A stretch of DNA of 64,000 nucleotides from Escherichia coli (GTDB lineage Bacteria > Pseudomonadota > Gammaproteobacteria > Enterobacterales > Enterobacteriaceae): assembly GCF_013315695.1 (NCBI RefSeq), contig NZ_CP054353.1, one strand, 5' to 3'. The notes beneath the pieces are model-generated. The model had not been told where the DNA came from, searched no databases, and was given only the letters and a program-made list of their open reading frames with translations. A program made the position numbers and the translations under genes. Positions 10,429 to 30,065 of this stretch are shown here, piece by piece. Every line of letters begins with the position of its first letter. The stretch's first letter is position 1.

Positions 10429-10447
10429 TAGCCTACGCAATGTAGGC
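10429..10447 (+). terminator. stem-loop after ycaO stop (AGCCTAC-GCAAT-GTAGGCT)
   Basis: Perfect 7-bp inverted repeat; no strong U-tract. Confidence 0.35.
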
Positions 10448-10452
10448 TTAAT

Positions 10453-10826
10453 GATTCGTCTGAGTTATATTACGGGGCGTTTTTTTAATGCCCCGCTTTA
10501 CATATATTTGCATTAATAAAATAATTGTAATTATAAAGTTAAATATCGGTAATTTGTATTTAATAAATACGATCGATATTGTTACTTTATTCGCCTGGTG
10601 CTCCCTTTTAATTAACTGTTTTAGCGGAGGATGCGGAAAAAATTCAACTCATTTGTTAATTTTTAAAATTTATTTTTATTTGGATAATCAAATATTTACT
10701 CCGTATTTGCATAAAAACCATGCGAGTTACGGGCCTATAAGCCAGGCGAGATATGATCTATATCAATTTCTCATCTATAATGCTTTGTTAGTATCTCGTC
10801 GCCGACTTAATAAAGAGAGAGTTAGT
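10453..10826 (+). promoter_or_regulatory. AT-rich focA-pflB upstream regulatory region
   Basis: About 370-bp noncoding AT-rich segment ahead of focA; known in E. coli to carry multiple promoters with FNR/ArcA/IHF control, but individual sites were not mapped here. Confidence 0.5.
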
Positions 10827-11684
10827 GTGAAAGCTGACAACCCTTTTGATCTTTTACTTCCTGCAGCAATGGCCAAAGTGGCCGAAGAGGCAGGTGTCTA
10901 TAAAGCAACGAAACATCCGCTTAAGACTTTCTATCTGGCGATTACCGCCGGTGTTTTCATCTCAATCGCATTCGTCTTCTATATCACAGCAACCACTGGC
11001 ACAGGAACAATGCCCTTCGGCATGGCAAAACTGGTTGGCGGCATTTGCTTCTCTCTGGGGCTGATTCTTTGTGTTGTCTGCGGAGCCGATCTCTTTACTT
11101 CCACAGTGTTGATTGTTGTTGCTAAGGCGAGTGGGCGCATCACCTGGGGTCAGTTGGCGAAAAACTGGCTAAATGTTTATTTTGGCAACCTAGTCGGCGC
11201 ACTGCTGTTTGTACTTTTAATGTGGCTTTCCGGCGAGTATATGACCGCAAATGGTCAATGGGGACTAAACGTCCTACAAACCGCCGACCACAAAGTGCAC
11301 CATACTTTTATTGAGGCCGTCTGTCTTGGTATCCTGGCAAACCTGATGGTATGTCTGGCAGTATGGATGAGTTATTCTGGCCGCAGCCTGATGGACAAAG
11401 CGTTCATTATGGTGCTGCCGGTCGCGATGTTTGTTGCCAGCGGTTTTGAGCACAGTATCGCAAACATGTTTATGATCCCGATGGGTATTGTAATCCGCGA
11501 CTTCGCATCTCCGGAATTCTGGACCGCTGTCGGTTCTGCACCGGAAAATTTTTCTCACCTGACCGTGATGAATTTCATCACTGATAACCTGATTCCGGTT
11601 ACGATCGGTAATATTATCGGCGGTGGTTTGTTGGTTGGGTTGACATACTGGGTCATTTACCTGCGTGAAAACGATCACCATTAA
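10827..11684 (+). CDS. focA: formate channel
   Basis: GTG start giving VKADNPFDLLLPAAMAKVAEEAG, 285 aa, multi-pass membrane protein; ORF track is extended upstream to 10488. Confidence 0.9.
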   Translation: MKADNPFDLLLPAAMAKVAEEAGVYKATKHPLKTFYLAITAGVFISIAFVFYITATTGTGTMPFGMAKLVGGICFSLGLILCVVCGADLFTSTVLIVVAKASGRITWGQLAKNWLNVYFGNLVGALLFVLLMWLSGEYMTANGQWGLNVLQTADHKVHHTFIEAVCLGILANLMVCLAVWMSYSGRSLMDKAFIMVLPVAMFVASGFEHSIANMFMIPMGIVIRDFASPEFWTAVGSAPENFSHLTVMNFITDNLIPVTIGNIIGGGLLVGLTYWVIYLRENDHH

Positions 11685-11738
11685 TGGTTGTCGAAGTACG
11701 CAGTAAATAAAAAATCCACTTAAGAAGGTAGGTGTTAC

Positions 11739-14021
11739 ATGTCCGAGCTTAATGAAAAGTTAGCCACAGCCTGGGAAGGTTTTACCAAAGGTGACTGGCA
11801 GAATGAAGTAAACGTCCGTGACTTCATTCAGAAAAACTACACTCCGTACGAGGGTGACGAGTCCTTCCTGGCTGGCGCTACTGAAGCGACCACCACCCTG
11901 TGGGACAAAGTAATGGAAGGCGTTAAACTGGAAAACCGCACTCACGCGCCAGTTGACTTTGACACCGCTGTTGCTTCCACCATCACCTCTCACGACGCTG
12001 GTTACATCAACAAGCAGCTTGAGAAAATCGTTGGTCTGCAGACTGAAGCTCCGCTGAAACGTGCTCTTATCCCGTTCGGTGGTATCAAAATGATCGAAGG
12101 TTCCTGCAAAGCGTACAACCGCGAACTGGACCCGATGATCAAAAAAATCTTCACTGAATACCGTAAAACTCACAACCAGGGCGTGTTCGACGTTTACACT
12201 CCGGACATCCTGCGTTGCCGTAAATCCGGTGTTCTGACCGGTCTGCCAGATGCTTATGGCCGTGGTCGTATCATCGGTGACTACCGTCGCGTTGCGCTGT
12301 ACGGTATCGACTACCTGATGAAAGACAAACTTGCACAGTTCACCTCTCTGCAGGCTGATCTGGAAAACGGCGTAAACCTGGAACAGACTATCCGTCTGCG
12401 CGAAGAAATCGCTGAACAGCACCGCGCTCTGGGTCAGATGAAAGAAATGGCTGCGAAATACGGCTACGACATCTCTGGTCCGGCTACCAACGCTCAGGAA
12501 GCTATCCAGTGGACTTACTTCGGCTACCTGGCTGCTGTTAAGTCTCAGAACGGTGCTGCAATGTCCTTCGGTCGTACCTCCACCTTCCTGGATGTGTACA
12601 TCGAACGTGACCTGAAAGCTGGCAAGATCACCGAACAAGAAGCGCAGGAAATGGTTGACCACCTGGTCATGAAACTGCGTATGGTTCGCTTCCTGCGTAC
12701 TCCGGAATACGATGAACTGTTCTCTGGCGACCCGATCTGGGCAACCGAATCTATCGGTGGTATGGGCCTCGACGGTCGTACCCTGGTTACCAAAAACAGC
12801 TTCCGTTTCCTGAACACCCTGTACACCATGGGTCCGTCTCCGGAACCGAACATGACCATTCTGTGGTCTGAAAAACTGCCGCTGAACTTCAAGAAATTCG
12901 CCGCTAAAGTGTCCATCGACACCTCTTCTCTGCAGTATGAGAACGATGACCTGATGCGTCCGGACTTCAACAACGATGACTACGCTATCGCTTGCTGCGT
13001 AAGCCCGATGATCGTTGGTAAACAAATGCAGTTCTTCGGTGCGCGTGCAAACCTGGCGAAAACCATGCTGTACGCAATCAACGGCGGCGTTGACGAAAAA
13101 CTGAAAATGCAGGTTGGTCCGAAGTCTGAGCCGATCAAAGGCGATCTCCTGAACTACGATGAAGTGATGGAGCGCATGGATCACTTCATGGACTGGCTGG
13201 CTAAACAGTACATCACTGCACTGAACATCATCCACTACATGCACGACAAGTACAGCTACGAAGCCTCTCTGATGGCGCTGCACGACCGTGACGTTATCCG
13301 CACCATGGCGTGTGGTATCGCTGGTCTGTCCGTTGCTGCTGACTCCCTGTCTGCAATCAAATATGCGAAAGTTAAACCGATTCGTGACGAAGACGGTCTG
13401 GCTATCGACTTCGAAATCGAAGGCGAATACCCGCAGTTTGGTAACAACGATCCGCGTGTAGATGACCTGGCTGTTGACCTGGTAGAACGTTTCATGAAGA
13501 AAATTCAGAAACTGCACACCTACCGTGACGCTATCCCGACTCAGTCTGTTCTGACCATCACTTCTAACGTTGTGTATGGTAAGAAAACTGGTAACACCCC
13601 AGACGGTCGTCGTGCTGGCGCGCCGTTCGGACCAGGTGCTAACCCGATGCACGGTCGTGACCAGAAAGGTGCAGTAGCCTCTCTGACTTCCGTTGCTAAA
13701 CTGCCGTTTGCTTACGCTAAAGATGGTATCTCCTACACCTTCTCTATCGTTCCGAACGCACTGGGTAAAGACGACGAAGTTCGTAAGACCAACCTGGCTG
13801 GTCTGATGGATGGTTACTTCCACCACGAAGCATCCATCGAAGGTGGTCAGCACCTGAACGTTAACGTGATGAACCGTGAAATGCTGCTCGACGCGATGGA
13901 AAACCCGGAAAAATATCCGCAGCTGACCATCCGTGTATCTGGCTATGCAGTACGTTTCAACTCGCTGACTAAAGAACAGCAGCAGGACGTTATTACTCGT
14001 ACCTTCACTCAATCTATGTAA
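11739..14021 (+). CDS. pflB: pyruvate formate-lyase
   Basis: 760-aa ORF starting [15 protein letters not shown], ending with the glycyl-radical region RVSGYAVRF. Confidence 0.97.
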
Positions 14022-14063
14022 TTAGATTTGACTGAAATCGTACAGTAAAAAGCGTACAATAAA

Positions 14064-14089
14064 GGCTCCACGAAAGTGGGGCCTTTTTT
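14064..14089 (+). terminator. rho-independent terminator after pflB
   Basis: GGCTCCAC-GAAA-GTGGGGCC hairpin followed by TTTTTT. Confidence 0.6.
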
Positions 14090-14212
14090 AGCACGAGAGC
14101 CTTTTTTGTCAGCTATCTATACTTTAAGGTGACTGCCAAAACAGACTCGACGTAGCCTTCGAGCTGCGCACCAACACGGCCTCAGATGGGCCACATCTGG
14201 AGAAACACCGCA

Positions 14213-14953
14213 ATGTCAGTTATTGGTCGCATTCACTCCTTTGAATCCTGTGGAACCGTAGACGGCCCGGGTATTCGCTTTATCACCTTTTTCCAGGGCT
14301 GCCTGATGCGCTGCCTGTATTGTCATAACCGCGACACCTGGGATACGCATGGCGGTAAAGAAGTTACCGTTGAAGATTTGATGAAGGAAGTGGTGACCTA
14401 TCGCCACTTTATGAACGCTTCCGGCGGCGGCGTTACCGCATCCGGCGGTGAGGCAATCCTACAAGCTGAGTTTGTTCGTGACTGGTTCCGCGCCTGCAAA
14501 AAAGAAGGCATTCATACCTGTCTGGACACCAACGGTTTTGTTCGTCGTTACGATCCGGTGATTGATGAACTGCTGGAAGTAACCGACCTGGTAATGCTCG
14601 ATCTCAAACAGATGAACGACGAGATCCACCAAAATCTGGTTGGAGTTTCAAACCACCGCACGCTGGAGTTCGCCAAATATCTGGCGAACAAAAATGTGAA
14701 GGTGTGGATCCGCTACGTTGTTGTGCCAGGCTGGTCTGACGATGACGATTCAGCGCATCGCCTCGGTGAATTTACCCGTGATATGGGCAACGTTGAGAAA
14801 ATCGAGCTTCTCCCCTACCACGAACTGGGCAAACACAAATGGGTGGCGATGGGCGAAGAGTACAAGCTCGACGGTGTAAAACCACCGAAAAAAGAGACGA
14901 TGGAGCGAGTAAAAGGCATTCTTGAACAATATGGTCATAAAGTGATGTTTTAG
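14213..14953 (+). CDS. pflA: pyruvate formate-lyase activating enzyme (radical SAM)
   Basis: 246 aa from [20 protein letters not shown] with the CxxxCxxC cluster motif [10 protein letters not shown]. Confidence 0.95.
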
Positions 14954-15023
14954 AACATCATTGCAGGTTGAATGTCGACCTGTAATTTTGGCTCCTTCCC
15001 CCTTCTTTTAGTTAGAATAAATA

Positions 15024-15055
15024 AATCAGCGTTGAGTGTATGCTCGACGCTGATT
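15024..15055. terminator. inverted repeat between convergent pflA and BcsC-like gene
   Basis: AATCAGCGTTGAG / CTCGACGCTGATT arms with one mismatch; T-rich run follows on the minus strand. Confidence 0.5.
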
Positions 15056-15099
15056 TATTGAGCTTAATTTTCGTACTGTAACTTTCCGATGCTACGTTA

Positions 15100-18000
15100 C
15101 TACCCGTCGGCGTAAGGTATCAGCGGCTGTGGCGGTAAATCCATATCGCCCTGCCATCCGGCGGCGGAATACCGTACATAGAGCTGGAAGTGACTTGGCG
15201 CATAATCCTTCGCTTTCTGGATATCAATCGCCGTACCAACAAACCAGTTGGACGTGACGCGACGTTCAAGTAATGCCCGTGCCGTGTAACCAAAACCCTG
15301 ACTGCTGCTACCACTGTTGGATTGTTGTGCTGCTTCTTCCTGCCAGTCGCTCGGGATCAGGTTCATCAGCGGATAACGCGGCATGGTTTTGGTCCGTGAG
15401 TGCGACCATGAACCTGAAGCCCCCAGCTCCCACGACCAGTTTTCCGTCCGCTCGCGCCACATCACCGGCACCGCAAACGACAGGTATTCCTGCGGGCTGT
15501 AGTAACCGCCCTGACCCAGTGAGTACTCACTCAGGTCTTTGTCGTAATGCCAGATCATGTTGTTCAGGCCAATGGTAACGCGGCGGTTATTCTCGTTGAT
15601 AATTTTATAGTAATAGCCCGTCATCCAGCGCACGCGCCAGTTATCTTCGACATTTTTACCGGTTAACTGATCACCGCTAAGCGATGCCCAGACGCCGTTT
15701 GCTTCACCTTTATCGTAACTCAGACTTAGCCCCACGCCGTCGGCACGCACGCCGCCCCATTTTTTCCCGGTGTTGCCCGGAGAATCTTTCTGCCCGCCGA
15801 AGGCCAGCATTGAGCTGGAGACAGGCCGACGATGTGCGTCAACGGTATAGCCGAGTGGGCCGATACTGTCGCTGTAACTGACAGCGCCGACCACATCCAC
15901 CACGTTGAATCCCATCGGTGTGGTGCCAATATCCCAGCTCCAGGTGTCGTTGCGCCAGCCAACCGCCACGCTTGTGCCGGAGTCTGACTGACTGCGGTTG
16001 CCGCTACACTCCTGCAGCGTACAGGTTCCCCAGTTATCATCCCATTTGCCATCGGCATTAGTGGAGAAACTGCCGACGTTCATATTGACGAAATCACTGC
16101 GAAAGAACATCCGACCGTCAGAATACGGCGCATCCACCTGCAACATGGTGGTATGTGCTTTCAGGTCAGAATAGCCGCCAGTGCCGTTTGATCCCCAGTA
16201 GTCGTGCTCCAGGGTGACATTGAGATCCTGCTGACGATAAAGATCTGCCGCATCGCTGCGCACGCCACGTTTCAGCCAGTCATCCTGCTCATCATTACGG
16301 GTAAGGCGGGTAAAGGTGTCGTTATCCTGCGGACGTGTCGTCGTCACGCCGGAAGCGATCATCGCATCTTTGTAGGTTTCCAGCGCCTGTTGCGGTTCAC
16401 CCGCCTGCGCCTCAAATTTTGCGCCATCGCGCAGTACCATCGCGCTTTCCATCGACGGCGGCTGAGATTTTGCCTGCAGGATCAGCCTGTTAAATGTCTG
16501 CTGTGCCGCTGCGGTATCGCCAAGCTGTGCCTGCACCAACGCCACGCGCCGCTGAGTGTTCAGCGAGGCGTTATCGGTGGCGGGAAGTTTCGCCAGTTGA
16601 CTGCGCGCCGCGGCTTTGTCGCCTGCGGCAATATCCACTTCCGTCAGGCCAAGAATGGCATCGGCGTTATTCGACTCCCGCGCCAGCACATTCTGATACG
16701 CCGTGCGGGCGGCGGTGTAATCGCGTCGCTGTTGTGCCCAGTCAGCCAGCGTAAGATCAATGCGCGTGGAAGGCGGTTGCTGGCGTAGCATCGCCTCCGC
16801 ATCCTGTTCTTTGCCACTGTCACGCAGGCGATTAGCCGTTTCCAGAATCTGATCGCTTTGCAGGCGATTCACCAGTTCCTGAATGTTGCCGTTCCACCGG
16901 GCGCGCGGCAGATTGTTAATATGCGCCAGCGCCGCCCGCTCCTGATCGTGACCGGAGAGATACAGTCCGTAAGCGTAAACCTGGTCCGGGTCGTTCGGCT
17001 TCTGTTGCGCCAGGTTACGCATTAACGTATCAGCCTGGGTACGTTGTCCGGCCTGCCAGAGATCCTGCGAAAGCCGGTAAGTTACCCACACACTGCCGGG
17101 GTCCAGCGCCAGTCGTTGCCGCTGAAGTGCTGCCGCCTGCGCCCATTTACCCTGATTTTCCAGCGCCTCCGCCTGCTGCGATAAGCGATCGTTTTGCAGA
17201 CTGCGTTCGATATCATCAATACTGCGCCGCTGGCTGGCAGAAAGTGACGCAATAAACGCTTCAGCTTTTTCCGGCGATTGCTGCCGATAAATGTTCGCCA
17301 GTCCACGCACGGCGTTAGTGTTGCCGCTGTCCATACGCAGGGTCTGCTGATAATAACGTTCGGCGGCGGGGTAATCTTTTCGCGCCATTGCCACATCACC
17401 CAGCCCCAGCACCGCATAGCTGTCGGTGTTATCGACATTGCGTGCCTGCAGGAACAGGCGTTCCGCCTGATCAGGATTGTTCGCTTTCAGTGCGGCATCG
17501 CCCTGTTGGATCGCCAGCCAATAACGGTTCACTTTCAGCAAACTGTTCCATTTGTCGTTGTTGCTGCTGTGCGGGCCCAGCGCGAGGGCTTTTTCCAGAT
17601 TTGCCACCGCATTCGCGCGATCGCCTTTCTGTGAATAAGCCTGGCCCAGCGCCCCCAATATTGCACCAGAGTTTGGGTTATCAATATTAAGTTTTTTCAA
17701 CTGACTAATTGCCTCGTTGCGACGAGATGCAATTTGCGCCACTGCACTCCAGTATTCCAACGCCATGCCGACATCTGACGGTACTCCGTTAAATAGCTTG
17801 TCATAACTGACAATAGCCTCCTCGTATCGCCCGGAGATAGCTTGTAAACGCGCCATTTGCAATGCCTGGCGCCCCTCAAGCGAAGAAAGTCGCATGACCG
17901 TACGCGATGCTTTATATATTTTTGAATCTGGGGCGATCAGAGAAAGTCTGGCAAGTTGTTTGTGTGCTCCGTCAATATCCCCCTTGCGAAGCAGATAGCG

Positions 18001-18219
18001 AAACCGAGCCGCAACGACATCAGGATTATTGGGCTCCACCAATTCAAGGCGATAAAGCGACTGCTCCACCAGTTCTTCACGGTGAGAGTCTTCTCCCAAT
18101 CGAATCTGTGCCATCAGCAGTTGATAAGCAGTTGGCGTGGCTTTTGCCATCGACATTACCGCCAAACCAAGAGATATGGTGAGTAAATTTAGGGTGAATT
18201 TGTGCATACCTGGACTCAA
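15100..18219 (-). CDS. BcsC-like TPR-repeat / outer-membrane export subunit of a cellulose-synthase-like system
   Basis: 1039-aa ORF with signal peptide, long TPR region and C-terminal beta-barrel-like tail ending PLIPYADG; last gene of the minus-strand operon; GC-rich (about 55-60 percent). Confidence 0.8.
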   Translation of the reverse strand: MSPGMHKFTLNLLTISLGLAVMSMAKATPTAYQLLMAQIRLGEDSHREELVEQSLYRLELVEPNNPDVVAARFRYLLRKGDIDGAHKQLARLSLIAPDSKIYKASRTVMRLSSLEGRQALQMARLQAISGRYEEAIVSYDKLFNGVPSDVGMALEYWSAVAQIASRRNEAISQLKKLNIDNPNSGAILGALGQAYSQKGDRANAVANLEKALALGPHSSNNDKWNSLLKVNRYWLAIQQGDAALKANNPDQAERLFLQARNVDNTDSYAVLGLGDVAMARKDYPAAERYYQQTLRMDSGNTNAVRGLANIYRQQSPEKAEAFIASLSASQRRSIDDIERSLQNDRLSQQAEALENQGKWAQAAALQRQRLALDPGSVWVTYRLSQDLWQAGQRTQADTLMRNLAQQKPNDPDQVYAYGLYLSGHDQERAALAHINNLPRARWNGNIQELVNRLQSDQILETANRLRDSGKEQDAEAMLRQQPPSTRIDLTLADWAQQRRDYTAARTAYQNVLARESNNADAILGLTEVDIAAGDKAAARSQLAKLPATDNASLNTQRRVALVQAQLGDTAAAQQTFNRLILQAKSQPPSMESAMVLRDGAKFEAQAGEPQQALETYKDAMIASGVTTTRPQDNDTFTRLTRNDEQDDWLKRGVRSDAADLYRQQDLNVTLEHDYWGSNGTGGYSDLKAHTTMLQVDAPYSDGRMFFRSDFVNMNVGSFSTNADGKWDDNWGTCTLQECSGNRSQSDSGTSVAVGWRNDTWSWDIGTTPMGFNVVDVVGAVSYSDSIGPLGYTVDAHRRPVSSSMLAFGGQKDSPGNTGKKWGGVRADGVGLSLSYDKGEANGVWASLSGDQLTGKNVEDNWRVRWMTGYYYKIINENNRRVTIGLNNMIWHYDKDLSEYSLGQGGYYSPQEYLSFAVPVMWRERTENWSWELGASGSWSHSRTKTMPRYPLMNLIPSDWQEEAAQQSNSGSSSQGFGYTARALLERRVTSNWFVGTAIDIQKAKDYAPSHFQLYVRYSAAGWQGDMDLPPQPLIPYADG

Positions 18220-19968
18220 TCAGGTGTTAACTCACTTTTTATTAAAAAATGAATAAGCGCAGTTCCCTGCCCTGCCTGTTTAAGGCCAGAGCAGAGAGCT
18301 ACAAAGATGAATTACTGTTGATGAGGATTCAGACGACGATGGCTAATGATGCGTAGCAGACGCCAGACGACCCACGCCAGAAGCACCACACTCAGCATTG
18401 CCATTCCTGCCAGCAAAACAGGATGTTTCGCTAACATATATTGCGCGCGCTCAATCCAGGGAAGATGCCCCACATAATAGGTATCTCCAACCCGTAAACT
18501 ATCGACACCTGATTCACGAATAACCGCAACTGAGCCAAATATATTGCCACGTTTTGCACTATTAATTAGCGCATTATTAAGTAACTCGTCACCACGTGCC
18601 CCCTCGGTCATTAATGCAATTACGCTACGTTGGGGATGATATGGAGACTGGAAACCAACCACCGCGGCCATTGGCGATGGAGAGATCATGCTTGTTTGTG
18701 TTTCAGTTTTTTGGTTGTTTTCATCTGTCATAATTTGTGCGTTATCAGAGTGCCGCATTGGCGTTTTTACCCAACTAGCGGTTGCATCAATGAGCAGATT
18801 AATTTGCTGCTGACCTGCAAATTCTTGCGGAATTGCCCCTATCAGCAGGATGTCTGCATCCTTATTCTGGATGGAGCTTATATCATCAGTAACTGTCAGA
18901 TTAATTGCCGGAAATCCGGTTTGAGCACCAATCAATCCAAGGGTATTTAGCAATATTTCAACCTGCGTTGTACCAGGATGTTCAGGCATAACGATGACTG
19001 TTTCAGATAAATCGGCCATACGGCTAAAAGGAAAGCCTGAACTAGCAAAGGCGCGTAAATCTGGCATGGCGATAAAGTGATGATACTTTGAAAAATCGAT
19101 AGTAGAATCATCAGCAATAACTGCATGGTTATTCAGAGGCCGGGAAATAATACAACTCCCGTCATCAGTACTCGGTATCGTATTAACGTACTCAAAATTG
19201 AATCGTAATTGATTAAGTGCCCCCAATGTCAGCGCCGGAATGGTAATTTTATTATTGCTATCTGACAATTCTTGCAATAACGGTAAATGTAATAGCAGTC
19301 GATCAGTAGTCGAGCGCGGGCTTGGGCGAAAAGATTCAATGTACTGATTATTAAGATTAACATCAATACGAGAACCGCCTACCATTGGCGTGGTATAGCG
19401 ATAGTTAATCTTCATATCAACCCCACTATTACGTAACAGAAAGAGATCAGGCGGCAAATTGAATGAAACATTAATTGCTGCGATCTGCAGGGCACTTGCC
19501 TGTAACTGTCCTTCATAGTTTTTAAGCTCTGCGAAAGTTACAGGACGATCAGTGCGAACCCAGTTTGGCGCATCATAAGGTTTGCGTGGCAGCAGTGGTT
19601 TCACGTCATTTACAACCACACTATCGCCGCGAAACAGTATATTTCCCTGAGCGAGACCTTTTGCTGCCTGTAATAAATCTTTGTCATCGCGGCCCCAAAT
19701 TACCAACAATTTGACGAAAGGATTTTGTGGATGGTTAATCATCTTAATAACAGGTGCATTCACCAACGGATGATCACGCAAAAAGTCTGGCCGTCTATTG
19801 TTAGTGGCAAAGACTATAGCATTGCTTTCCGGTAACTGATTATAAAAAACTGGAAATTGATGACCACGCCACCCCGATTGCGAACCAAACCACGAAGCGA
19901 CAATTGCAGATGCTTGCTGCAAACCAGCCTCCGGTGGGCCAGCAAAAACCATCGGCAATGTATTAGTA

Positions 19969-19977
19969 CGGTTATCT
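19969..19977. repeat. IS1 target-site duplication, left copy (CGGTTATCT)
   Basis: Identical 9 bp at 20746-20754. Confidence 0.9.
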
Positions 19978-20032
19978 GGTGATGCTGCCAACTTACTGAT
20001 TTAGTGTATGATGGTGTTTTTGAGGTGCTCCA

Positions 20033-20308
20033 GTGGCTTCTGTTTCTATCAGCTGTCCCTCCTGTTCAGCTACTGACGGGGTGGTGCGTAACGGCAAAAG
20101 CACCGCCGGACATCAGCGCTATCTCTGCTCTCACTGCCGTAAAACATGGCAACTGCAGTTCACTTACACCGCTTCTCAACCCGGTACGCACCAGAAAATC
20201 ATTGATATGGCCATGAATGGCGTTGGATGCCGGGCAACAGCCCGCATTATGGGCGTTGGCCTCAACACGATTTTACGTCACTTAAAAAACTCAGGCCGCA
20301 GTCGGTAA
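20033..20308 (+). CDS. insA: IS1 InsA
   Basis: 91-aa [33 protein letters not shown]. Confidence 0.9.
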
Positions 20309-20730
20309 CCTCGCGCATACAGCCGGGCAGTGACGTCATCGTCTGCGCGGAAATGGACGAACAGTGGGGCTATGTCGGGGCTAAATCGCGCCAGCGCTGG
20401 CTGTTTTACGCGTATGACAGGCTCCGGAAGACGGTTGTTGCGCACGTATTCGGTGAACGCACTATGGCGACGCTGGGGCGTCTTATGAGCCTGCTGTCAC
20501 CCTTTGACGTGGTGATATGGATGACGGATGGCTGGCCGCTGTATGAATCCCGCCTGAAGGGAAAGCTGCACGTAATCAGCAAGCGATATACGCAGCGAAT
20601 TGAGCGGCATAACCTGAATCTGAGGCAGCACCTGGCACGGCTGGGACGGAAGTCGCTGTCGTTCTCAAAATCGGTGGAGCTGCATGACAAAGTCATCGGG
20701 CATTATCTGAACATAAAACACTATCAATAA
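20227..20730 (+). CDS. insB: IS1 InsB frame (expressed as InsAB' by programmed -1 frameshift)
   Basis: Overlapping -1 frame ORF downstream of insA, typical IS1 arrangement. Confidence 0.85.
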
Positions 20731-20745
20731 GTTGGAGTCATTACC

Positions 20746-20754
20746 CGGTTATCT
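20746..20754. repeat. IS1 target-site duplication, right copy (CGGTTATCT)
   Basis: Matches 19969-19977. Confidence 0.9.
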
Positions 20755-21455
20755 CGCGGATCAAAGAATGGCACAGGAAAATATGAAAGATCATTTTGCA
20801 GATTGAGTTTCTGGACGACCAGACCAAGTTCACTGTTACGTCCAATATCAAGCCACAAGTTATTGCTGGTTGAGATTTCACAGCTATTCTGATAATGGCC
20901 AATTAATTCAAAACGCAAACGATTAAAATCCGAGAAATACAATGGGTTAAGCGTTATTTCCGCCAACGTTTTTTTTCCCAGTTGTTCTTTGGTAATCGGT
21001 AATACTCCCATCAACTCATCATTAAGATAAACTTTAAGCTGCGACTGAACGGGGATCAATGACGGTGACGGAGTATATTCAAGCTTTAGTTTTGCATCTG
21101 AAACTATCTCATCACTGCGCATACCAAATTCAATATACCCCAGTGGGTTGACACCATTCAAAACGATGTTACCAGGCGCTGGTGATATTTGTGTAAATGG
21201 AAGTTTAAAATGATAAGAGGAATCTTTCGCATAAACAGAGACGTTAGACTTCTCTATAGCGGGTAATACTATCCCGGAGGGAGACTTATGGATTATGGTA
21301 TCTAAAGCTGATGCAGCATTTGCCTGGTATAACCATAAAAACCCTAAGCAAATTATTGCAGTAATAAATTTTAAATATTTTCTTTCCATTTTAAAAATTT
21401 CAAGAGACATAATCAACACAAATAATATATTTAGTTGGTTAAATATAATCTAAAA

Positions 21456-23570
21456 CTAATTCTCACGACTATTTTTTAGTGTCCGCAGAATATAAAAAAT
21501 CATATTGTAATACCCTTTAAGAGAGATGATACATACGTCAAAAAAGCTCTTTAGTATATTATCTTGCTTAATTTTATCATTCCACTCTTGCCATAATGAA
21601 TCACGTGAAAATGTTACTCTGACATAATTAATATTCTGTTCATAAGTCATTGGCAAAATCTTCAGACCAATTTTATTTTTGTAAGCATGAACAACTTTTA
21701 CAGGAATATCACATTCCCCTTTATTATCACTCAGATAAAGAGACAAATGCTGAGTTTTTTCGATTTCTTTTACATCGGAGATGTGATCAACAATAACCCC
21801 CAGGCCACCTTCGGAGAAATCAATAACAGAACAGGGATAGCACCGTCCATCTGCTAGTTTTATCACACCTTTAAAAGAAACATCTATCCGAGGAGAAAAG
21901 CGGACCTGCTTTTGTTCAATAGAGACTGCCAGGGTTGCGCCAATAATAATTGTATTATAAATCAACCAAATCAAACAAAATAAATTTAATATAACAAGAT
22001 GACCTTGCAATCTATAAATATTAATAACACCTATTATTAGTCCAATTAAATTTAAAATAGCAAAAATAAGATAAGGATATGAGATTCGCCAGTCAACAAA
22101 TTTATTTTTTATTAACCCGCCCTTGGCAGTAACGTTAAATCGCCCTTTAGCTGGCGCAAGTAAGGCAACAAGCGTTGGTAGTGTAATATACCAGGCCAGA
22201 ACCATTTCATAAATTTCATTCCAAAATGAATGTCTGTATTCACCCTGAACTCTTGAGTTAGTAAAAATAATCACAAATAGATAAGGTAGAACATAAGACA
22301 TAATATCTGCAACCGACGCATCTATCAAATTAACTGAAAAGAAAATAGGACATAGTGGCGCGAATAAAAAAATCAGCCGTGGAACCCCTGATAAAAAATG
22401 CATCATGCTACTGAGATAGCAAAGACGCTGTGATAACGTCAGCCCTTTGCCCAATAATGGATTATCAATACGTAAGATTTGGATCATGCCCCTGGCCCAC
22501 CGTATTCGTTGTCCGATATGAGCAGACAATGTTTCGGTAGCAAGTCCAGCGGCCAGAGGATAGCGAAGATATGCGGAGCTGTACCCTGCACGATGCAAGC
22601 GTAGCGATGTATGCGCATCTTCCGTTACCGTTTCAACTGCAATGCCTCCAACCTCATCTAATGCAGACCTACGGATAACCGCGCATGAACCACAAAAAAA
22701 TGAAGCATTCCATGTATCGGTGCCATTCTGGATTAAACCATAAAAAAGATGTCCTTCATTTGGTTTCTGCCGAAATTGCCCCAAGTTTCGCTCAAAAGGA
22801 TCGGGAGAGAAAAAATGATGTGGTGTTTGCAGCATCGATAGTTTTTTATCGGCAATAAACCAGCCCATCGTTTTTTTTAAAAAAGAAACGGAAGGAATAT
22901 GATCACAATCGAAAATAGCAACAAATTCGCCGTTAGCTATTTTAAGCGCATTGTTTATATTTCCAGCTTTCGCATGTTCATGCGTTTCTCTTGCAACATA
23001 GCAAATACCTGACTCATCAGCAAATTTCCTGAATTCGTCTCTGGCACCATCATCAAGAAGCCAGACATGTAATTTATCTTTTGGCCAGTCTAAAGCCAGC
23101 GCTCCATAAACTGTATTCTTCACGACAGTAAAGGGTTCATTATATGTAGGTATGAATATATCGACATCAGGCCATTCTTCTTTATTATCTGGTAAAGGTA
23201 TGCTTTCCCTGTTCAATGGGAAACAGACCTGAAAATAACCAAGTAATAAAACAAACCATGCATACGTTTCAGCAGCTAACAGCGTCAATGAAAAGAAGCT
23301 GTCAGGAAACTCATCAAGAATAACTGAAGAAGAGTAACGCCACCATAGATACCTTGTGGATATAAGTATACCAATACCCATTAAGATCAGGGTAATCATC
23401 CTTCCCCTGAGCAAATTGAGGAGAAAAACAGAGATACAAATGATAATCGAGAATAGTGTTTGTTGATAAAAACCGAGCGGCTGTTCAACAATTGACAAAA
23501 AAACAAAACATAGCAATATAGCAACAAAAAGAAAAATTTTGTTGTATATTTCTTTATTTTTTAAATTCAT
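21456..23570 (-). CDS. BcsA-like processive family-2 glycosyltransferase with C-terminal PilZ domain
   Basis: 704-aa multi-pass membrane ORF with FDCDH and QRIRWARG (QxxRW) motifs and PilZ signatures RFSPR / DFSEGGLG; AT-rich (about 25-35 percent GC). Confidence 0.85.
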   Translation of the reverse strand: MNLKNKEIYNKIFLFVAILLCFVFLSIVEQPLGFYQQTLFSIIICISVFLLNLLRGRMITLILMGIGILISTRYLWWRYSSSVILDEFPDSFFSLTLLAAETYAWFVLLLGYFQVCFPLNRESIPLPDNKEEWPDVDIFIPTYNEPFTVVKNTVYGALALDWPKDKLHVWLLDDGARDEFRKFADESGICYVARETHEHAKAGNINNALKIANGEFVAIFDCDHIPSVSFLKKTMGWFIADKKLSMLQTPHHFFSPDPFERNLGQFRQKPNEGHLFYGLIQNGTDTWNASFFCGSCAVIRRSALDEVGGIAVETVTEDAHTSLRLHRAGYSSAYLRYPLAAGLATETLSAHIGQRIRWARGMIQILRIDNPLLGKGLTLSQRLCYLSSMMHFLSGVPRLIFLFAPLCPIFFSVNLIDASVADIMSYVLPYLFVIIFTNSRVQGEYRHSFWNEIYEMVLAWYITLPTLVALLAPAKGRFNVTAKGGLIKNKFVDWRISYPYLIFAILNLIGLIIGVINIYRLQGHLVILNLFCLIWLIYNTIIIGATLAVSIEQKQVRFSPRIDVSFKGVIKLADGRCYPCSVIDFSEGGLGVIVDHISDVKEIEKTQHLSLYLSDNKGECDIPVKVVHAYKNKIGLKILPMTYEQNINYVRVTFSRDSLWQEWNDKIKQDNILKSFFDVCIISLKGYYNMIFYILRTLKNSREN

Positions 23571-23643
23571 GGTACGTAACTATTCATTAATACTATGATT
23601 TGACTTTAAAAAAACGAATGAATGATGTCATAAAAATAAAATT

Positions 23644-24984
23644 TTAACACCAGGTTACCTGTGCTCTTCCATTTTGCTTACTTTTGTATAATCGTTCATC
23701 TGCCAGTAATTTCAACCGTTCAATGTTATTCATGCACTCGTCAGTATTGGCAACACCAATACTGCAACTACAATTCAATCCACCTATTGAGAAATGGACT
23801 ATTCTGTGCAAAATTCTTGATAATTGATTTATATCTTTATCATGATAAATAATAGCGAACTCATCGCCACCAAATCGATAAACTTCACCTTTGCTGAGGG
23901 GTAATTCATCCTTAATAAGATTAACAAGTCTTATTAGTACTTCATCACCAAATAAATGACCAAACTTGTCATTAATGGTTTTAAACTTATCTACATCAAA
24001 CAGGCATAAATATCCAAAATCCTTACTCAGCATCCTGATATTTTTATCAAAAACACGACACCCAGAAGCTCGCGTCAATGCATCGTAAGTCCCGGAATCA
24101 TATATTTCTCTAATTGCATCAATCTCTTCAACGTTAAAGAATAGATTTTTTCCATGCAAATTATAATGATTATTCGATAATATAGATTCTTTTTCTGACT
24201 TACCCTTATTTATGATTTTTTGCATTAATTTAATGTAATGAAAATATATTAACCCCGCAGAAATCGCCGATGTGAAAACAAAAAACAAGCACATATAAAT
24301 ATACTTATCTTTTTTATAGGCAACAATAAACATTACTTCCGGGATATAAGAATAAGCAAGAGTGATCGCTGATTTCTCAAATACAGCATCATTAATCAAA
24401 AAATCATCACCCGCGATTTTCTTTTCATTATCATTGATATCATAAAATGAGACATATATATTTTCCCGTTCACCTGACTGATTTCTTATCAAAGCCAAAT
24501 AACGTTCAGGATCTACCACTGATATCAAACTTGTTCGTTTCGAAATAGGATGAGCATAATAAATATAATATTTATTATTTAAACTAATAATCCCTCTTTC
24601 AAAGATGTTACTTATACGGATAGAAGAAACTATGCCGTCACAAAAGTTATCCCCTTCCGTTGTAACTTTGGCGCATTTACCATCGCTAATGATATAGGGA
24701 CCTAGATCATAAATATATTCTGGTTTTTGAAAGTCAGCAAAACTATTGCGTATCCTTTTTAACAACTCTTCCGGAGAAATATCTAACCCATAAAATACAT
24801 TATTAAATACTAAGCGCCGATACTCAGACACATTAGCTATAGCAAGCCCACTATCTATGATCGATACCTTTACCGAATTGACTCGATCTTTAACGTAAAT
24901 AGTATACAGATAACATGTCATTACAGAGACACATAAAAAATACAAAAAACAGATCCCTGCTGCCTTTTTTTTATACTTAAACAT
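23644..24984 (-). CDS. membrane-anchored diguanylate cyclase (GGDEF)
   Basis: 446-aa ORF with two TM segments flanking a periplasmic domain and an intact RFGGDEF active site. Confidence 0.85.
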   Translation of the reverse strand: MFKYKKKAAGICFLYFLCVSVMTCYLYTIYVKDRVNSVKVSIIDSGLAIANVSEYRRLVFNNVFYGLDISPEELLKRIRNSFADFQKPEYIYDLGPYIISDGKCAKVTTEGDNFCDGIVSSIRISNIFERGIISLNNKYYIYYAHPISKRTSLISVVDPERYLALIRNQSGERENIYVSFYDINDNEKKIAGDDFLINDAVFEKSAITLAYSYIPEVMFIVAYKKDKYIYMCLFFVFTSAISAGLIYFHYIKLMQKIINKGKSEKESILSNNHYNLHGKNLFFNVEEIDAIREIYDSGTYDALTRASGCRVFDKNIRMLSKDFGYLCLFDVDKFKTINDKFGHLFGDEVLIRLVNLIKDELPLSKGEVYRFGGDEFAIIYHDKDINQLSRILHRIVHFSIGGLNCSCSIGVANTDECMNNIERLKLLADERLYKSKQNGRAQVTWC

Positions 24985-24988
24985 TGTG

Positions 24989-27337
24989 TTATTTTCTTTT
25001 TTTCGGTTTACTGTCTATATGCCACTCTGAAAACGGTAATGGTTTCTGGTATAAATATCCCTGAACATGGGAGAAGCCTAATTTTTGTAATTCTCTGGCC
25101 TGTCTTTCTGTTTCAACACCTTCAGCGATCACTGGCATATTTTCTTCTCGTGCAAGACTAGATATAAAACACACAACCCTGTTAGTTTCATCGAAAATAC
25201 CAGAAGTAAATTCTGAATCAATTTTGATGCTATCAGGTCTAACTTTGTATAATTTTTTCAAGTCAGCTAACCCACTGCCAAAATCATCAAGGGAAATTTT
25301 AATGCCATTTCTTCTTAAAAATTTTATATTATTATAAAAACTATCATTTATATCTTTCATTGCTGACTCGGTGATCTCCAGACAGATTTGTTCCGTATTT
25401 ACGCCAAATTTATTAATTAAATTCAAAACGCGGGTATGGAAATCAAATTCATTTAACTGCCAAGGTGAAACATTGATATGCAGAAGAAATTCTTTCGTAA
25501 TTTCATACTCACGACTAAATGAACCAAATTCACCAATAGCCGTTTCAAGAACAAAATCACCCAGTTCTTTAATTAAGCCAATTTCTTCAGCAACAGGCAC
25601 GAAAACTGATGGTGGTATTGCACCATTTTCAACGGACAACCAGCGGCATAACGCTTCGGCGCCAACAACATTATTACTATCCATATCAACAATCGGTTGA
25701 TATACTAAATAAAACTCACTACTCACAATTGCTTTTTTTATATTTCCAGCAACCCAAACCTTTTGATCAAGTTCATGAGCCTTAATATCATCATAAAATA
25801 TAAATTCAGATTCTTTATTTTCTCGCATAGCTGTTAATGCCAGTTTCAGTTTACCTTCATAAATCGACAAACTTTCCCCTGAAAAAGTTTCACAAATAGC
25901 AACCTTATGAACATAAATATTTCTTATGCAAAAAATATGCTCAGGAAAGTTTAAAACAGATAATCGTTCTATGAACTCTTCACAATGAGTGTGACACAGC
26001 AACAAATATGTTTCAGTAGAAATTTTTATAATATCACAATATTTAGAATACTTTGCTGATATCTTTGATTTTATATCATTAATGATCTCATAAAATTTCT
26101 GACTGCCATGTATAGCCTCTACAAACTCTAATCCATAGATACAAAGCATACCAACTGCTGAATAGGTTTTATTATTAGTTTCAATGACAGATTTGTTGAT
26201 ATAGAAACAACTTCCTTGTTCATAGGAAACAAGATTAAGTAACCGTTCCATCCGCTCTTTGTATTTGTCACTAATGTTATTAATGATTTTTTTGAGCTCA
26301 ATAATCTCACTACTGTCATTTTGCACGATTTCGATTTTATCATTTCGGTATACTGAGCTCGCTAATTTTTTCAGATGCTCAATTAGTTTACCAGAGTCGT
26401 TTCTAACCTTTTTTGTTATCTTTTCAAAAAGGTACCATAATAAACAGAAACAAACCAAACCACATACAAACATCAGTGTAAAATATTTATTTATGTTTGT
26501 GTCTTCTGCTTTTTGATAATGAAAATAATGAAATTTGACATCAGGAAGCCTGGGGAGTGAAATAATATCGTCCGTATAATTACCGTTATTATTACTTATG
26601 TTATAACGTCCAGATGCATCTCTAACAATAAGATGTAACATTGATTGTTCATTACCTACCATAATCCTTTTATTCTGTTCCATAAATAAAATATCTGCAT
26701 TTCCTCCTAATTTGTCCAGGAAATTGCTAAAATATCTTTCATCAAGATCTAAATGAATTAACTTCAGAGCAAATGAATCTTTTTCTGCTTCGGCTGGTCG
26801 TAATGAAAACGAAAAACATTTTTTCCCGGCAATGCCATAGCAGTTATACCATGGTGACCATTTTGAATAAGTCCCTGTTGGTAATTTATTCCAGGGACGG
26901 GATTCAGGATCAAAGTAGTTATCGTTAATTTCACCATCAGGGCTAGTAAAAGCATGACCTGGCTCTGATTGCCCCAAAAATTTAACATCACCATTATCAG
27001 TTCGAATAAAGCTAAGATACTTTCCATTATTTAGCATTATTCCGACTAAATTAACAGAATCTATCTTTTTCATCCGATGAAGAACTGCGCGTTTTATTTC
27101 ATTTTCATCGTGTAACAGATAAATGGCATCTTTTAAAGCATCCGCCTCTTTTTCAACTTTAGAAAAAAAGTTATTCAAATTATTATTGATAAGTATAAGA
27201 TTAATGCGTGAAGAGTTTTCTGCTATTTTTTTATAAAAATCAATGGCTGTAATAAATGATAAAATAATATAGACAGTGACAGCGAATATAAGCGCAGTGT
27301 TAAATCTTGAGTTTAATTTTTCTGTGATGCTATACAT
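24989..27337 (-). CDS. membrane-anchored c-di-GMP phosphodiesterase (EAL)
   Basis: 782-aa ORF with two TM segments and periplasmic domain; EAL signatures GAEALCRW, LDDFGSG, AEGVE; first gene of the operon, stop 4 bp before the GGDEF start. Confidence 0.85.
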   Translation of the reverse strand: MYSITEKLNSRFNTALIFAVTVYIILSFITAIDFYKKIAENSSRINLILINNNLNNFFSKVEKEADALKDAIYLLHDENEIKRAVLHRMKKIDSVNLVGIMLNNGKYLSFIRTDNGDVKFLGQSEPGHAFTSPDGEINDNYFDPESRPWNKLPTGTYSKWSPWYNCYGIAGKKCFSFSLRPAEAEKDSFALKLIHLDLDERYFSNFLDKLGGNADILFMEQNKRIMVGNEQSMLHLIVRDASGRYNISNNNGNYTDDIISLPRLPDVKFHYFHYQKAEDTNINKYFTLMFVCGLVCFCLLWYLFEKITKKVRNDSGKLIEHLKKLASSVYRNDKIEIVQNDSSEIIELKKIINNISDKYKERMERLLNLVSYEQGSCFYINKSVIETNNKTYSAVGMLCIYGLEFVEAIHGSQKFYEIINDIKSKISAKYSKYCDIIKISTETYLLLCHTHCEEFIERLSVLNFPEHIFCIRNIYVHKVAICETFSGESLSIYEGKLKLALTAMRENKESEFIFYDDIKAHELDQKVWVAGNIKKAIVSSEFYLVYQPIVDMDSNNVVGAEALCRWLSVENGAIPPSVFVPVAEEIGLIKELGDFVLETAIGEFGSFSREYEITKEFLLHINVSPWQLNEFDFHTRVLNLINKFGVNTEQICLEITESAMKDINDSFYNNIKFLRRNGIKISLDDFGSGLADLKKLYKVRPDSIKIDSEFTSGIFDETNRVVCFISSLAREENMPVIAEGVETERQARELQKLGFSHVQGYLYQKPLPFSEWHIDSKPKKRK

Positions 27338-28436
27338 ACTGGTGTTCTGACTAAAATGTTATCAATAATTTCGATATTACATTATATAAAGTTCGGTATA
27401 TGAAATGGTATTAATACTCCTCTTTATGATTTTCTGAATTAAATGATCTCCATTCTGTAAATATATCATAATGAGAAGATTGATTTTCTCTTAATTTACC
27501 AAAGTTATTATCATGCTTATTACTTTAACCAGAATGACATTATCATATATAGCGTTTATACTTTTGCATCTTCCACCCACGCTACCGCCTTTCGTTAATT
27601 TATCAACGAAATAATTTAGATATGAAAAAATCAATATATGACGCCTAAGCTATCACATTATGCATAGTTGCGACATTCACCTCTTTAATTATCCCAAAGA
27701 GGTATTAATGTGAATTCTCTATCATCCATTTTGCTGATTTATCTTTTTTCAGTCATGAGCAATCCGACTCTCTTAGCCAAAATAAATTAATAACCTTAAA
27801 ATGAGGTTTAATCAGAAAGTAGTAGCCACAGCTTGACTATTAAGACTATAAATTAGCCATAACGATGGACAGATAAATATGTTAATGAATACATGTTCAA
27901 TAAAACAATAAGGCACAACGCCAGGCCACCATTTTATTTTAAAAATAAAAGGCTGTGAACTATGCCAGGTATAATCTGATTCTATCGAGAGAGAATTTTT
28001 GTAAGTTACAAATACTGCAAAAGACACATTACACAAAATTTTTAACCACACAAACACCTTGTGTTCTGTATAACAGAACAATAGCTGTGGTCATTTTCAG
28101 CAAGTTTAACTAAAATTATCAAGAATTTTTTTTGATGTATATCAAAAACAATAGTCTTCGCGCATCCGTTACTGCTTAACATTTACCCACAAAGTTCATA
28201 TTTTCACCACACATAATCGTTCACTTCAGAACTTAAAATAATAACTTGCAAAATAACCAATAATTAAAACTATCACTGCATCTAAAAATAAAGATTAAGA
28301 TAACTAAAATTCGTATTATCACGGCATCGTTTATCGCCACCCGTCTCTTAAGAAAAATTTAACTTTGCTATTATCAGTCCTCTCCGAATTTCTCTTCTAT
28401 TTACTGCGATAACCCCGGCGAACCGGGGCATGATGA
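27338..28436 (-). promoter_or_regulatory. 1.1-kb AT-rich noncoding leader/promoter region upstream of the EAL-GGDEF-bcsA-like operon
   Basis: No convincing ORF; strongly AT-rich; sits at the 5' end of a minus-strand operon. Confidence 0.4.
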
Positions 28437-29856
28437 CTATTTCTTATTCGCTTTACGCGCAAGTAACGGGAATATCAGCCCCAGTCCAACCAGGACAAAT
28501 GGCGTCGCAATATTCAGCGCCAACTGAAAAGTCCACTCTGCGGTGAAGGCTTCCATTTTCGGGAAAATCCCTGTCAGGCAGGCAAAAGCGGTAAAGGTAA
28601 AACACCAGATCCCGACAGTCATCGCCAGCGGCCTGTTACGAATAAAGACATACTCTGGTTTATATTTCTGCGCCAGGCGAACGACTGCAATAAATGCAAC
28701 AAATACCCATAAATAACGCAGCGGCATCACTACCGAATTAAGGTTCAACAGCCATTTATAGAGATTGTTCATATCACCAATGCCGAGAGTCGGCAGCATA
28801 ATCAGAATCGCCACCAGTACCAGGGTCAGAAAATAGCCATTAACGGGCGTACCAGAAGCGTTGGTACGACATAAACTGGCTGGAATATATTTGCTATCAG
28901 CATCGCCTAATAGTACTTTAAGCGGCGCATCAATCGAGAATACCAGCGCAGCTACTTGTCCCAGGGTATTCGCAATGGCGTAAATCACCATTAAAGTATT
29001 ACCCATGTTGTAATACTCGCCCAGCTTCTGAAAGGCGTAATACTGACCGTTGGTCATTAAGTCATCCGGGATATTACGCGAATCAAACATCATCCCCATC
29101 GCCAGCGAGCCCAGAATGGCACAAACCGCAACCATCACCGCCAGGCATAACATCCCTTTTGGAAATTCTTTTCCTGGGTTGCGCGTTTGATTAACGTAAG
29201 GAGAAATCTTCTCTGCTCCGCCAACCGCGAAAACCAGCATTGAAATAGTGGTAATGTAGGTAAAGTCGATATGAGGAATGAACGTTTCCCAGGTAATGTT
29301 TGTGGTCGCAATATGCACTTCAGTAATTGCAGGCGCGGTTACCGCCATCGCCACATACAGGAGCGACATAACAAACATCGCAATCCCTGCCACAGAACCG
29401 ACGATTTTCAGCGATTTCATACCGCGTGAAGCAACCCACATAAAGAAGATAAACAGCACCAGCGTTAACCCCTGTAACGCTACGACTGAATATTCTTTGA
29501 TTAACGAACCGTCGCCTTTCATCGCCCAACCGAGCGCAATCAGTATTGCCTGGGGTTTTTGTGCCAGATAGGGAATATGCACTACCCAGTAGGTCCACGC
29601 GGCGAGGTAAGCCAGTCCGGGTCCCATCGTGTGTTTAATCCAGGTACTGACCCCGCCCTTCCCATCTTTGAAGGTCGAGCCTAACTGACCAACAATTAGC
29701 GCATAAGGTGTGAAATAGAGCGCAAAGATAAACACCCATGAAAAACCCCTGGTTGGCGTAGTTATTAACAACGTTGCCAAAACCCCAGACAGTGATAAAA
29801 GACATCAGCGCAATGTTGTACCATCGCAGCTGTTTTTCCTGAACATTCCCAGCCAT
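28437..29856 (-). pseudogene. ycaM: APC-family amino-acid transporter with a frameshift in a homopolymer tract
   Basis: N-terminal frame MAGNVQEKQLRWYNIALMSFITVWGFGNVVNNYANQGF (from 29856) and C-terminal 447-aa frame (28437-29780) overlap in different frames at the A5/C4 run at 29752-29760. Confidence 0.65.
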
Positions 29857-30065
29857 AGACAAATCCTTCGCCAAAATTAAAGGGGCATCTGTAAAACGAG
29901 GGATTATGCGCGGCAAATAAGAAGTGCGGAAATAGCGAAATGCAAAATTATAACCTGCTGCACATTTTATTTTGAAACGAATAAAATTTGGAATAAAGCA
30001 AGTCAGATAGAAGAAACAAAAAAGCAGAGTGTGAAACAGTAAGTTCACACTCTGCGTTAATTCAT

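Follow-up and report, generated by a model that had tools for sequence, protein, structure and literature searches.

A probable BcsA3-type accessory cellulose synthase cluster between pflA and ycaM in Escherichia coli, with bcsB interrupted by IS1 and a chimeric bcsC

We have analysed a stretch of 64,000 nucleotides (nt) of Escherichia coli DNA (NCBI RefSeq assembly GCF_013315695.1, contig NZ_CP054353.1; referred to here as the window), which carries between pflA and ycaM a block of five genes, all on the minus strand (15100–27337), for an EAL-domain protein, a GGDEF-domain protein and three proteins resembling the cellulose synthase subunits BcsA, BcsB and BcsC. The locus is very probably a BcsA3-type accessory cluster ('bcs3') whose products would sense a signal, synthesise a polymer and export it, and in this strain it consists of four genes and a pseudogene, as bcsB is interrupted by the insertion sequence IS1. 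It should be noted that this class of locus has already been described and is routinely annotated, with the NCBI Prokaryotic Genome Annotation Pipeline (PGAP) naming the structural genes of near-identical strains bcsA, bcsB and bcsC alongside EAL- and GGDEF-domain proteins. Our additions are modest and consist of the orthologous site in three Escherichia species, two diverged alleles, and a bcsC which is chimeric and, in one allele, apparently further converted.

An earlier sequence-only reading of the window had described the block as tightly spaced, and this was borne out by intergenic gaps of 4, 73, 66 and 104 nt in the gene order EAL–GGDEF–bcsA–bcsB–bcsC. It had also called the synthase cellulose-synthase-like and its polymer unknown. 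When the protein searches it proposed were run, the structural proteins matched the curated BcsA, BcsB and BcsC models, with the BcsA-like protein scoring 1012.8 against NCBIfam NF008558 (curated cut-off 992) and 845.7 against TIGR03030 (curated cut-off 699.1), whereas the PgaC, NodC and other models for family 2 glycosyltransferases (GT2) scored it far under their own cut-offs. The GT2 motifs are kept (DDG173, DCD221, FFCGS291, TED316 and QRIRW354), as are the gating loop FNVTAK478 and the PilZ motifs RFSPR557 (RxxxR) and DFSEGG584 (DxSxxG), and the Pfam domain PF07238 (PilZ) is precomputed for an identical protein, so that the catalytic and receptor motifs reported earlier are intact. Because curated BcsA equivalog cut-offs are passed, the earlier wording was too cautious on sequence grounds, and by family membership the protein is predicted to be a BcsA cellulose synthase, although it remains correct that the product is inferred rather than observed.

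The same protein is short, as had been pointed out, being without ~145 N-terminal and ~35 C-terminal residues of the E. coli K-12 BcsA (the gaps fall at K-12 residues 4–148 and in the C-terminal tail), and is 52.9% identical to K-12 BcsA residues 158–836 (688 aligned residues of 872, which is equivalent to 41.7% overall). The nearest solved structures are those of the E. coli (7LBY and 9FMV) and Rhodobacter sphaeroides (4HG6) BcsA proteins, and among known paralogues and alleles it shares 73% identity with the plasmid-borne BcsA2 and 90% with the allele of E. coli strain N3. Short BcsA proteins of this kind form only three clusters at 90% identity among 5.8 billion proteins, all of them from Escherichia and named only as E. 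coli, E. ruysiae and E. marmotae, with the next match being the core enterobacterial BcsA at 56%.

These characteristics agree with those of one of the three classes of accessory cellulose synthase which Hosseinpourlamardi et al. (Römling laboratory, May 2025; bioRxiv 10.1101/2025.05.09.653004) describe in E. coli. In that preprint, BcsA3 is reported to share ~41% identity with BcsA1, to have intact motifs but to be without the extensions of ~150 aa at the N-terminus and ~30 aa at the C-terminus, and to be encoded by chromosomal clusters which are restricted to Escherichia, contain bcsABC only and adjoin genes for full-length YliE/YliF homologues (10.1101/2025.05.09.653004). The window locus is alike in all of these respects (bcsABC only, ~41% identity to BcsA1, chromosomal, found only in Escherichia, and with YliE/YliF-like neighbours), and the identities of our EAL and GGDEF proteins to the K-12 homologues, 38.6% and 40.7%, fall inside the ranges given in the preprint. 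The assignment to BcsA3 was made by elimination, there being only three short-BcsA clusters of which the one at 73% is the plasmid type, and we consider it secure. The text of the preprint makes no mention of the pflA/ycaM site, of orthologues in E. marmotae and E. ruysiae or of alleles 15% apart, nor does it mention IS1-disrupted or decayed copies, purifying selection or a chimeric bcsC.

The two remaining genes encode a predicted membrane phosphodiesterase and a predicted membrane diguanylate cyclase for cyclic di-GMP (c-di-GMP), and the domain content given to the five products in the earlier reading is upheld by the Pfam and NCBIfam models. In the EAL protein, CHASE9 was detected at residues 36–150 (7.9e-38) and EAL at 533–766 (2.1e-64), giving a domain order of transmembrane segment, periplasmic CHASE9, transmembrane segment, linker and EAL, and all of the catalytic signatures are present (EAL561, N622, EITE654, DDFGSG684, K705, EGVE739 and QGY759). 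No GGDEF domain was detected by the Pfam search of this protein; the linker is probably a degenerate GGDEF, since homology to the K-12 PdeI is full-length (38.6% identity over 775 aa, with both proteins 782 aa long). The GGDEF protein has GAPES2 at residues 26–232 (1.2e-39) and GGDEF at 300–441 (2e-21), in the order transmembrane segment, periplasmic GAPES2, transmembrane segment and GGDEF, and shares 40.7% identity with K-12 DgcI over its whole length (445 aa). An intact GGDEF motif is present at residue 372, with no RxxD I-site upstream of it.

The pair closely resembles K-12 pdeI–dgcI (yliE–yliF) in the CHASE9…EAL and GAPES2–GGDEF architectures, in the order of the genes, in having few bases between them (here the GGDEF gene begins 4 nt past the EAL gene stop), and in protein length, which is the same for the two phosphodiesterases and 446 aa here compared to 442 aa for DgcI. 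It differs in showing only 39–41% identity and in its neighbours, which here are the genes of a synthase operon and in K-12 are gsiABCD and rimO. To our knowledge, no role in cellulose production has been demonstrated for K-12 pdeI–dgcI.

The locus had been proposed to be distinct from the canonical bcs locus, and this was confirmed by finding two bcsC places in each of the six complete genomes with the window-type allele, which puts the core bcs locus elsewhere. The core class II system (bcsRQABZC–bcsEFG), which produces phosphoethanolamine cellulose, is nonetheless homologous to the window locus (53% identity for BcsA, 64% for BcsB, and 93% for BcsC over the C-terminal 859 residues), and PilZ-mediated activation by c-di-GMP would be expected in both. 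In addition to being sited elsewhere, the window locus differs from the core system in having its own cyclase and phosphodiesterase pair in cis, in a BcsA which is shorter at both ends, in a BcsC without 122 tetratricopeptide repeat (TPR) residues, and in gene content, as there is no open reading frame (ORF) for bcsZ, bcsQ, bcsE, bcsF, bcsG or bcsR between pflA and ycaM (the absence of BcsZ-, BcsQ- and BcsE-type genes had already been noticed). The plasmid-borne bcs2 cluster encodes the closest BcsA paralogue (BcsA2, 73%) and is likewise a minimal bcsABC cluster found only in Escherichia, but it is located on large plasmids and its BcsB is only 60% identical to the window BcsB; no plasmid BcsA with at least 80% identity to the window BcsA was found. 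On pLR-29-1_1 (10001–20922) the order is bcsA2, bcsB2, a group II intron reverse transcriptase gene and bcsC, and this bcsC is full-length with a product 99.65% identical in amino acids to the K-12 core BcsC.

The product of the window-type synthase is presumably unmodified cellulose without phosphoethanolamine. This is expected because there is no bcsG, bcsE or bcsF and because BcsA3 is without the N-terminal extension of the core protein, and the authors of the preprint likewise suggest an unmodified cellulose (10.1101/2025.05.09.653004). We regard it as very improbable that the synthase makes another polymer, such as a mixed-linkage, β-1,3 or differently modified glucan. The product is predicted from sequence alone, BcsA3 has only 53% identity to the core BcsA with neither of its extensions, and the cluster is without bcsZ, bcsQ, bcsE and bcsG, all of which would leave room for such a polymer; against this, two BcsA equivalog cut-offs are passed while other GT2 models are far below theirs, the motifs for the glucan channel and the acceptor (FFCGS, TED and QxxRW) have been kept, and the synthase has true BcsB and BcsC partners with the latter 93% core-type. 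Furthermore, the R. sphaeroides BcsA makes cellulose without the extensions, as is established knowledge and also noted in the preprint (10.1101/2025.05.09.653004).

The survey of carriers that had been suggested located the bcs3 locus in nine of the 5,426 complete E. coli genomes, in every case on the chromosome, as well as in E. marmotae and E. ruysiae. Six of the nine have the window-type allele (at least 98.9% identity) and three an allele which is ~85% identical. E. coli MS 21-1 carries a window-type allele in which all five genes are intact, with nine amino-acid substitutions in total compared to the window, while the IS1 in bcsB is found in the window, AF3 and MSB1_4I. When the window is compared with N3, the flanks are 99–100% identical and the island, from the pflA 3' end to the ycaM 3' end, 67–91%, with the divergence starting inside pflA and ycaM. 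The island of N3 matches the one in 'E. coli' E69 at 93–97% identity while the N3 flanks are 99–100% E. coli, and E69 is a non-coli Escherichia, as its own housekeeping flanks are only 83–93% identical to E. coli.

In E. marmotae and E. ruysiae the five genes are orthologously placed (the dmsABC–ycaC–ycaD … pflA–pflB site), and the allele is widespread in E. marmotae; this species distribution was taken from protein clusters and their encoding contigs, with a scan of species-representative contigs giving one locus, that of E69. The window allele is about equidistant from those of E. ruysiae, E. marmotae and N3 (79–89% nt identity). For all five genes the inter-allele ratio of non-synonymous to synonymous divergence (dN/dS) is 0.07–0.16 and dS is 0.6–0.85, with the bcsC ratio taken against E69 as the E. 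marmotae locus L012 was unusable, having no bcsC called (probably due to a frameshift); the dS of the flanking ycaD between E. coli and E. marmotae is 0.66. The low dN/dS values indicate long-term function under strong purifying selection. We also note that no gene is called at the ycaM place (about 4881–6223) in three E. marmotae loci, and no bcsC at 14601–17708 in L012, and these uncalled genes may be pseudogenes or deletions.

The description of the locus as a five-gene operon does not fully hold for this strain, as the interruption of bcsB had been understated. The IS1 is flanked by a perfect 9-bp target duplication, CGGTTATCT (19969–19977 and 20746–20754), which like the terminal repeats was read straight from the sequence, and the transposase ORF matches NF033558 and is labelled by PGAP as IS1A family. 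The two pieces of bcsB match positions 3–216 and 211–765 of one model, NF008325, and in the near-identical MSB1_4I the 5' piece is marked by PGAP as 'incomplete; missing C-terminus'. When IS1 is excised in silico together with one of the two 9-bp repeats, an uninterrupted BcsB of 766 aa results, which is just as long as the BcsB annotated for intact alleles and has 64% identity to K-12 BcsB and 84% to N3 BcsB. The perfect duplication and the restoration of this protein by excision suggest that the insertion was recent and simple.

The C-terminal membrane anchor of BcsB is needed for the activity of BcsA in the BcsA–BcsB complex, and IS1 separates the N-terminal ~215 residues (carbohydrate-binding) from the rest of BcsB, including this anchor. 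Because IS1 splits bcsB, the synthase is almost certainly inactive in the window strain, and the insertion is probably also polar on bcsC. The EAL and GGDEF genes and bcsA stay intact despite IS1, and the neighbouring intact BcsB partner which is absent in the window is present in MS 21-1, N3, E. marmotae and E. ruysiae. No core-derived tracts were found in bcsB, where nucleotide identity is 45–79% throughout. The earlier suggestion of a self-contained module has to be qualified in two respects, as bcsB is broken in this strain and the 3' 83% of bcsC is core-derived.

The bcsC ORF (15100–18207) encodes 1035 aa from an ATG, with a longer ORF of 1039 aa starting from a TTG at 18219. The match of the protein to NF008520, which has a score of 1859.9 (cut-off 858), falls into two parts between which model positions ~181–298 are absent, and PF05420 (the BCSC_C barrel) is recorded in BcsC orthologues. 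Compared to K-12 bcsC, codons 1–176 have 64–74% nucleotide and ~60–76% amino acid identity with a saturated dS of 2.9; these are followed by a gap of 122 codons corresponding to K-12 residues 177–298, or about three TPRs, after which the last 859 codons have 93% amino acid and 82–92% nucleotide identity. The window bcsC is a chimera in which a paralogous 5' part is joined to a core-type 3' 83%, and the fusion is old, since this architecture is common to all alleles. The gradient in GC content along the operon can be explained by bcsC being such a mosaic gene. The core bcsC of ~5,400 E. coli genomes is 88–90% identical in nucleotides to the 3' segment (90.2% at best), and the best relatives of the corresponding protein part are the Escherichia core BcsC proteins at 93%, ahead of those from Citrobacter (83%) and Salmonella (80%); a donor species could not be assigned by the protein search, as the Escherichia core representatives were all at 93–94%. 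The concordant clustering of BcsC with BcsA reported in the preprint (10.1101/2025.05.09.653004) fails for this core-type part of the window bcsC. Many BcsC entries of 1027 aa from E. coli and Enterobacteriaceae match the query at only 79% over 69% of its length, and one of these occurs on at least 1000 contigs, so that BcsC has another common variant in length or sequence.

A further exchange with the core gene is evident in N3 bcsC (3462–6569 of the N3 locus). In the 5' 530 nt, the informative sites match E69 in 163 cases and K-12 in one, but at K-12 positions 900–2850 ~125 sites match K-12 and 26 E69, and in the last 320 nt 28 sites match E69 and one K-12. The middle tract of ~2 kb is 95–99% identical to the core bcsC in 5,519 E. 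coli records (best match 98.7%), and this core-like tract suggests gene conversion of the N3 accessory bcsC by the E. coli core bcsC. The converted tract sits inside an E. ruysiae-like backbone. Core-like bcsC genes are also carried at 127 E. coli plasmid places, and it would seem that accessory bcs clusters take their exporter gene from the core locus.

In K-12 the gene order at this site is ycaM–ycaN–ycaK–pflA, and homology between the window and K-12 stops at the pflA and ycaM stop codons. No remnant of ycaN or ycaK was found between pflA and ycaM at the nucleotide or protein level, in agreement with the sequence-only reading in which these genes were replaced. This might be taken as a recent foreign island brought in from outside Escherichia in place of ycaN–ycaK, and such an event would be consistent with the clean absence of the two genes, the rarity of the locus in E. 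coli, the GC content of the EAL, GGDEF and bcsA genes (30–40%, with ~50% in the flanks) and the description of such clusters as horizontally transferred in the preprint (10.1101/2025.05.09.653004). We find this improbable, however, as there is no non-Escherichia relative above 56% among the 5.8 billion proteins, the same five genes are at pflA/ycaM in E. marmotae and E. ruysiae, and dS between the window and E. marmotae is similar to that of ycaD. No integrase or tRNA site marking the island was found, a repeat search across it gave short AT-rich chance matches only with no flanking island repeats, and the exchange of the island, with divergence beginning within pflA and ycaM, resembles homologous recombination through the flanks. 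The low GC content of the three genes points to an origin which would be foreign ultimately.

The distribution of the locus fits what would be an old Escherichia locus under purifying selection that has been exchanged by homologous recombination through its flanks. Tentatively, we would extend this to propose that bcs3 may be an old locus of the genus, shared by E. coli, E. ruysiae and E. marmotae with a housekeeping-like dS, which is being lost in E. coli (ycaN–ycaK take its place in >99% of strains, and copies in several carriers are decaying through IS1 insertion, nonsense mutation and frameshift), whose bcsC has been repeatedly converted by the core gene, implying coupling, and whose unmodified cellulose would be made when a periplasmic signal of its own reaches the CHASE9/GAPES2 pair. 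If true, the repeated overwriting by core bcsC would suggest a functional coupling of both cellulose systems through a shared exporter or partner.

A different origin for the window-type allele, by introgression from an unsampled Escherichia through flank recombination in the way that the N3-type allele would have come from an E. ruysiae-like lineage, seems to us rather unlikely. It has a parallel in N3 itself, where an island like that of the non-coli E69 is set between E. coli flanks, and the 3' part of the window bcsC is 10–12% diverged from every E. coli core bcsC, which would be consistent with its conversion by a core bcsC from a different species. On the other hand, the window allele is about as far from the E. 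ruysiae allele as from those of E. marmotae and N3, as expected for vertical inheritance, the pflA boundary in the window is K-12-like almost to the stop codon, and no donor lineage was found in our contig and protein-cluster searches.

For the intact allele we propose a mechanism which draws on established knowledge of Bcs systems and on the motifs found here, and in which the polymer, activation by c-di-GMP, operon transcription and the enzymatic activities are all inferred. The CHASE9 phosphodiesterase and the GAPES2 cyclase would act as an antagonistic pair, turning a periplasmic cue into a c-di-GMP level, and c-di-GMP bound by the PilZ domain of BcsA3 would release the gating loop. BcsA3, kept active by the C-terminal anchor of BcsB3, would then polymerise UDP-glucose into a β-1,4-glucan and pass it across the inner membrane, and BcsC with its shortened TPR region would export the chain across the outer membrane.

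A number of points weigh against our reading of the window locus as a bcs3 cluster which works in this way. The BcsA3 reference protein of the preprint is HDP8224287.1, and the window protein was assigned to its class by elimination; the experiments in the preprint concern only the unrelated, Klebsiella-like bcs4 cluster (10.1101/2025.05.09.653004), and we found no published experimental test of a bcs3 cluster in the literature. Co-transcription of the block as an operon is argued from gene spacing alone, because promoter-like sites in the 1.1-kb leader upstream of the EAL gene were no commoner than in shuffled sequence and a terminator scan at the pflA/bcsC junction gave nothing above chance. 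In E. coli carriers the lesions are varied, with an internal stop codon in the bcsA of AF3 besides its IS1, an EAL gene in two pieces together with a shorter bcsB in AF14, and a truncated BcsA of 392 aa recorded on 119 contigs (KTE strains), which suggests that the locus may be dispensable or counter-selected there. Finally, the core BcsG might act in trans on the product, which would then not be the unmodified cellulose we expect.

The coordinates of the locus and its edges are listed in Table 1. The leader has no gene annotated in any carrier and varies more from allele to allele than the rest of the island (67–76% identity), and silencing of this AT-rich region by H-NS is plausible; an Rfam scan of 14000–30000 matched no family. 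The adjacent ycaM is frameshifted by an 11-bp deletion near 29745 (gene nt 112–122, relative to the intact MS 21-1 allele), and is likewise 'frameshifted' according to PGAP in AF3, MSB1_4I and AF14. Further to the right, a tyrosine recombinase (phage integrase) gene is found at 36428–37435 directly after dmsA, where serS is located in K-12, AF3 and N3, and the same gene is annotated as 'phage integrase' by PGAP in MSB1_4I; the right part of the window, from ~36428 to ~64000, is probably a prophage. In strain AF3, P2-like integrase and Cox genes adjoin pflA instead.

Table 1. Positions in the window of the bcs3 locus and of the features at its edges.
Feature	Coordinates	Strand	Remarks
EAL gene (PdeI/YliE-like)	24989–27337	-	782 aa
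GGDEF gene (DgcI/YliF-like)	23644–24984	-	446 aa
bcsA (probable BcsA3 type)	21456–23570	-	704 aa, intact; GT2 and C-terminal PilZ
bcsB 5' fragment	20746–21389	-	Codons 1 to ~215, truncated by IS1
IS1 within bcsB	19978–20745	+	768 bp
bcsB 3' fragment	18312–19977	-	~Codons 213–766, with C-terminal membrane anchor
bcsC 5' segment, paralogous	17680–18207	-	Codons 1–176: signal peptide and first TPRs
bcsC 3' segment, core-type	15100–17679	-	Codons 177–1035: other TPRs and β-barrel
AT-rich non-coding leader, presumed promoter region	27338–28436	.	ycaM stop to EAL start, 1.1 kb, 31% GC
pflA, left edge of replaced segment	14213–14953	+	PGAP annotation in identical strains
ycaM pseudogene, right edge of replaced segment	28437–29856	-	Alignment with intact MS 21-1 ycaM

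The chimeric and repeatedly converted bcsC would provide a small but clear case of concerted evolution between a core and an accessory gene. Should the intact allele be active, some Escherichia would make a second and probably unmodified cellulose under the control of a separate periplasmic signal, and this, if true, would be relevant to how biofilms form, to persistence in the environment and to the way in which cellulose production is traded off against virulence. The locus is apparently maintained in E. marmotae and E. ruysiae but mostly lost or disabled in E. coli, which makes bcs3 a candidate marker of niche difference within the genus.

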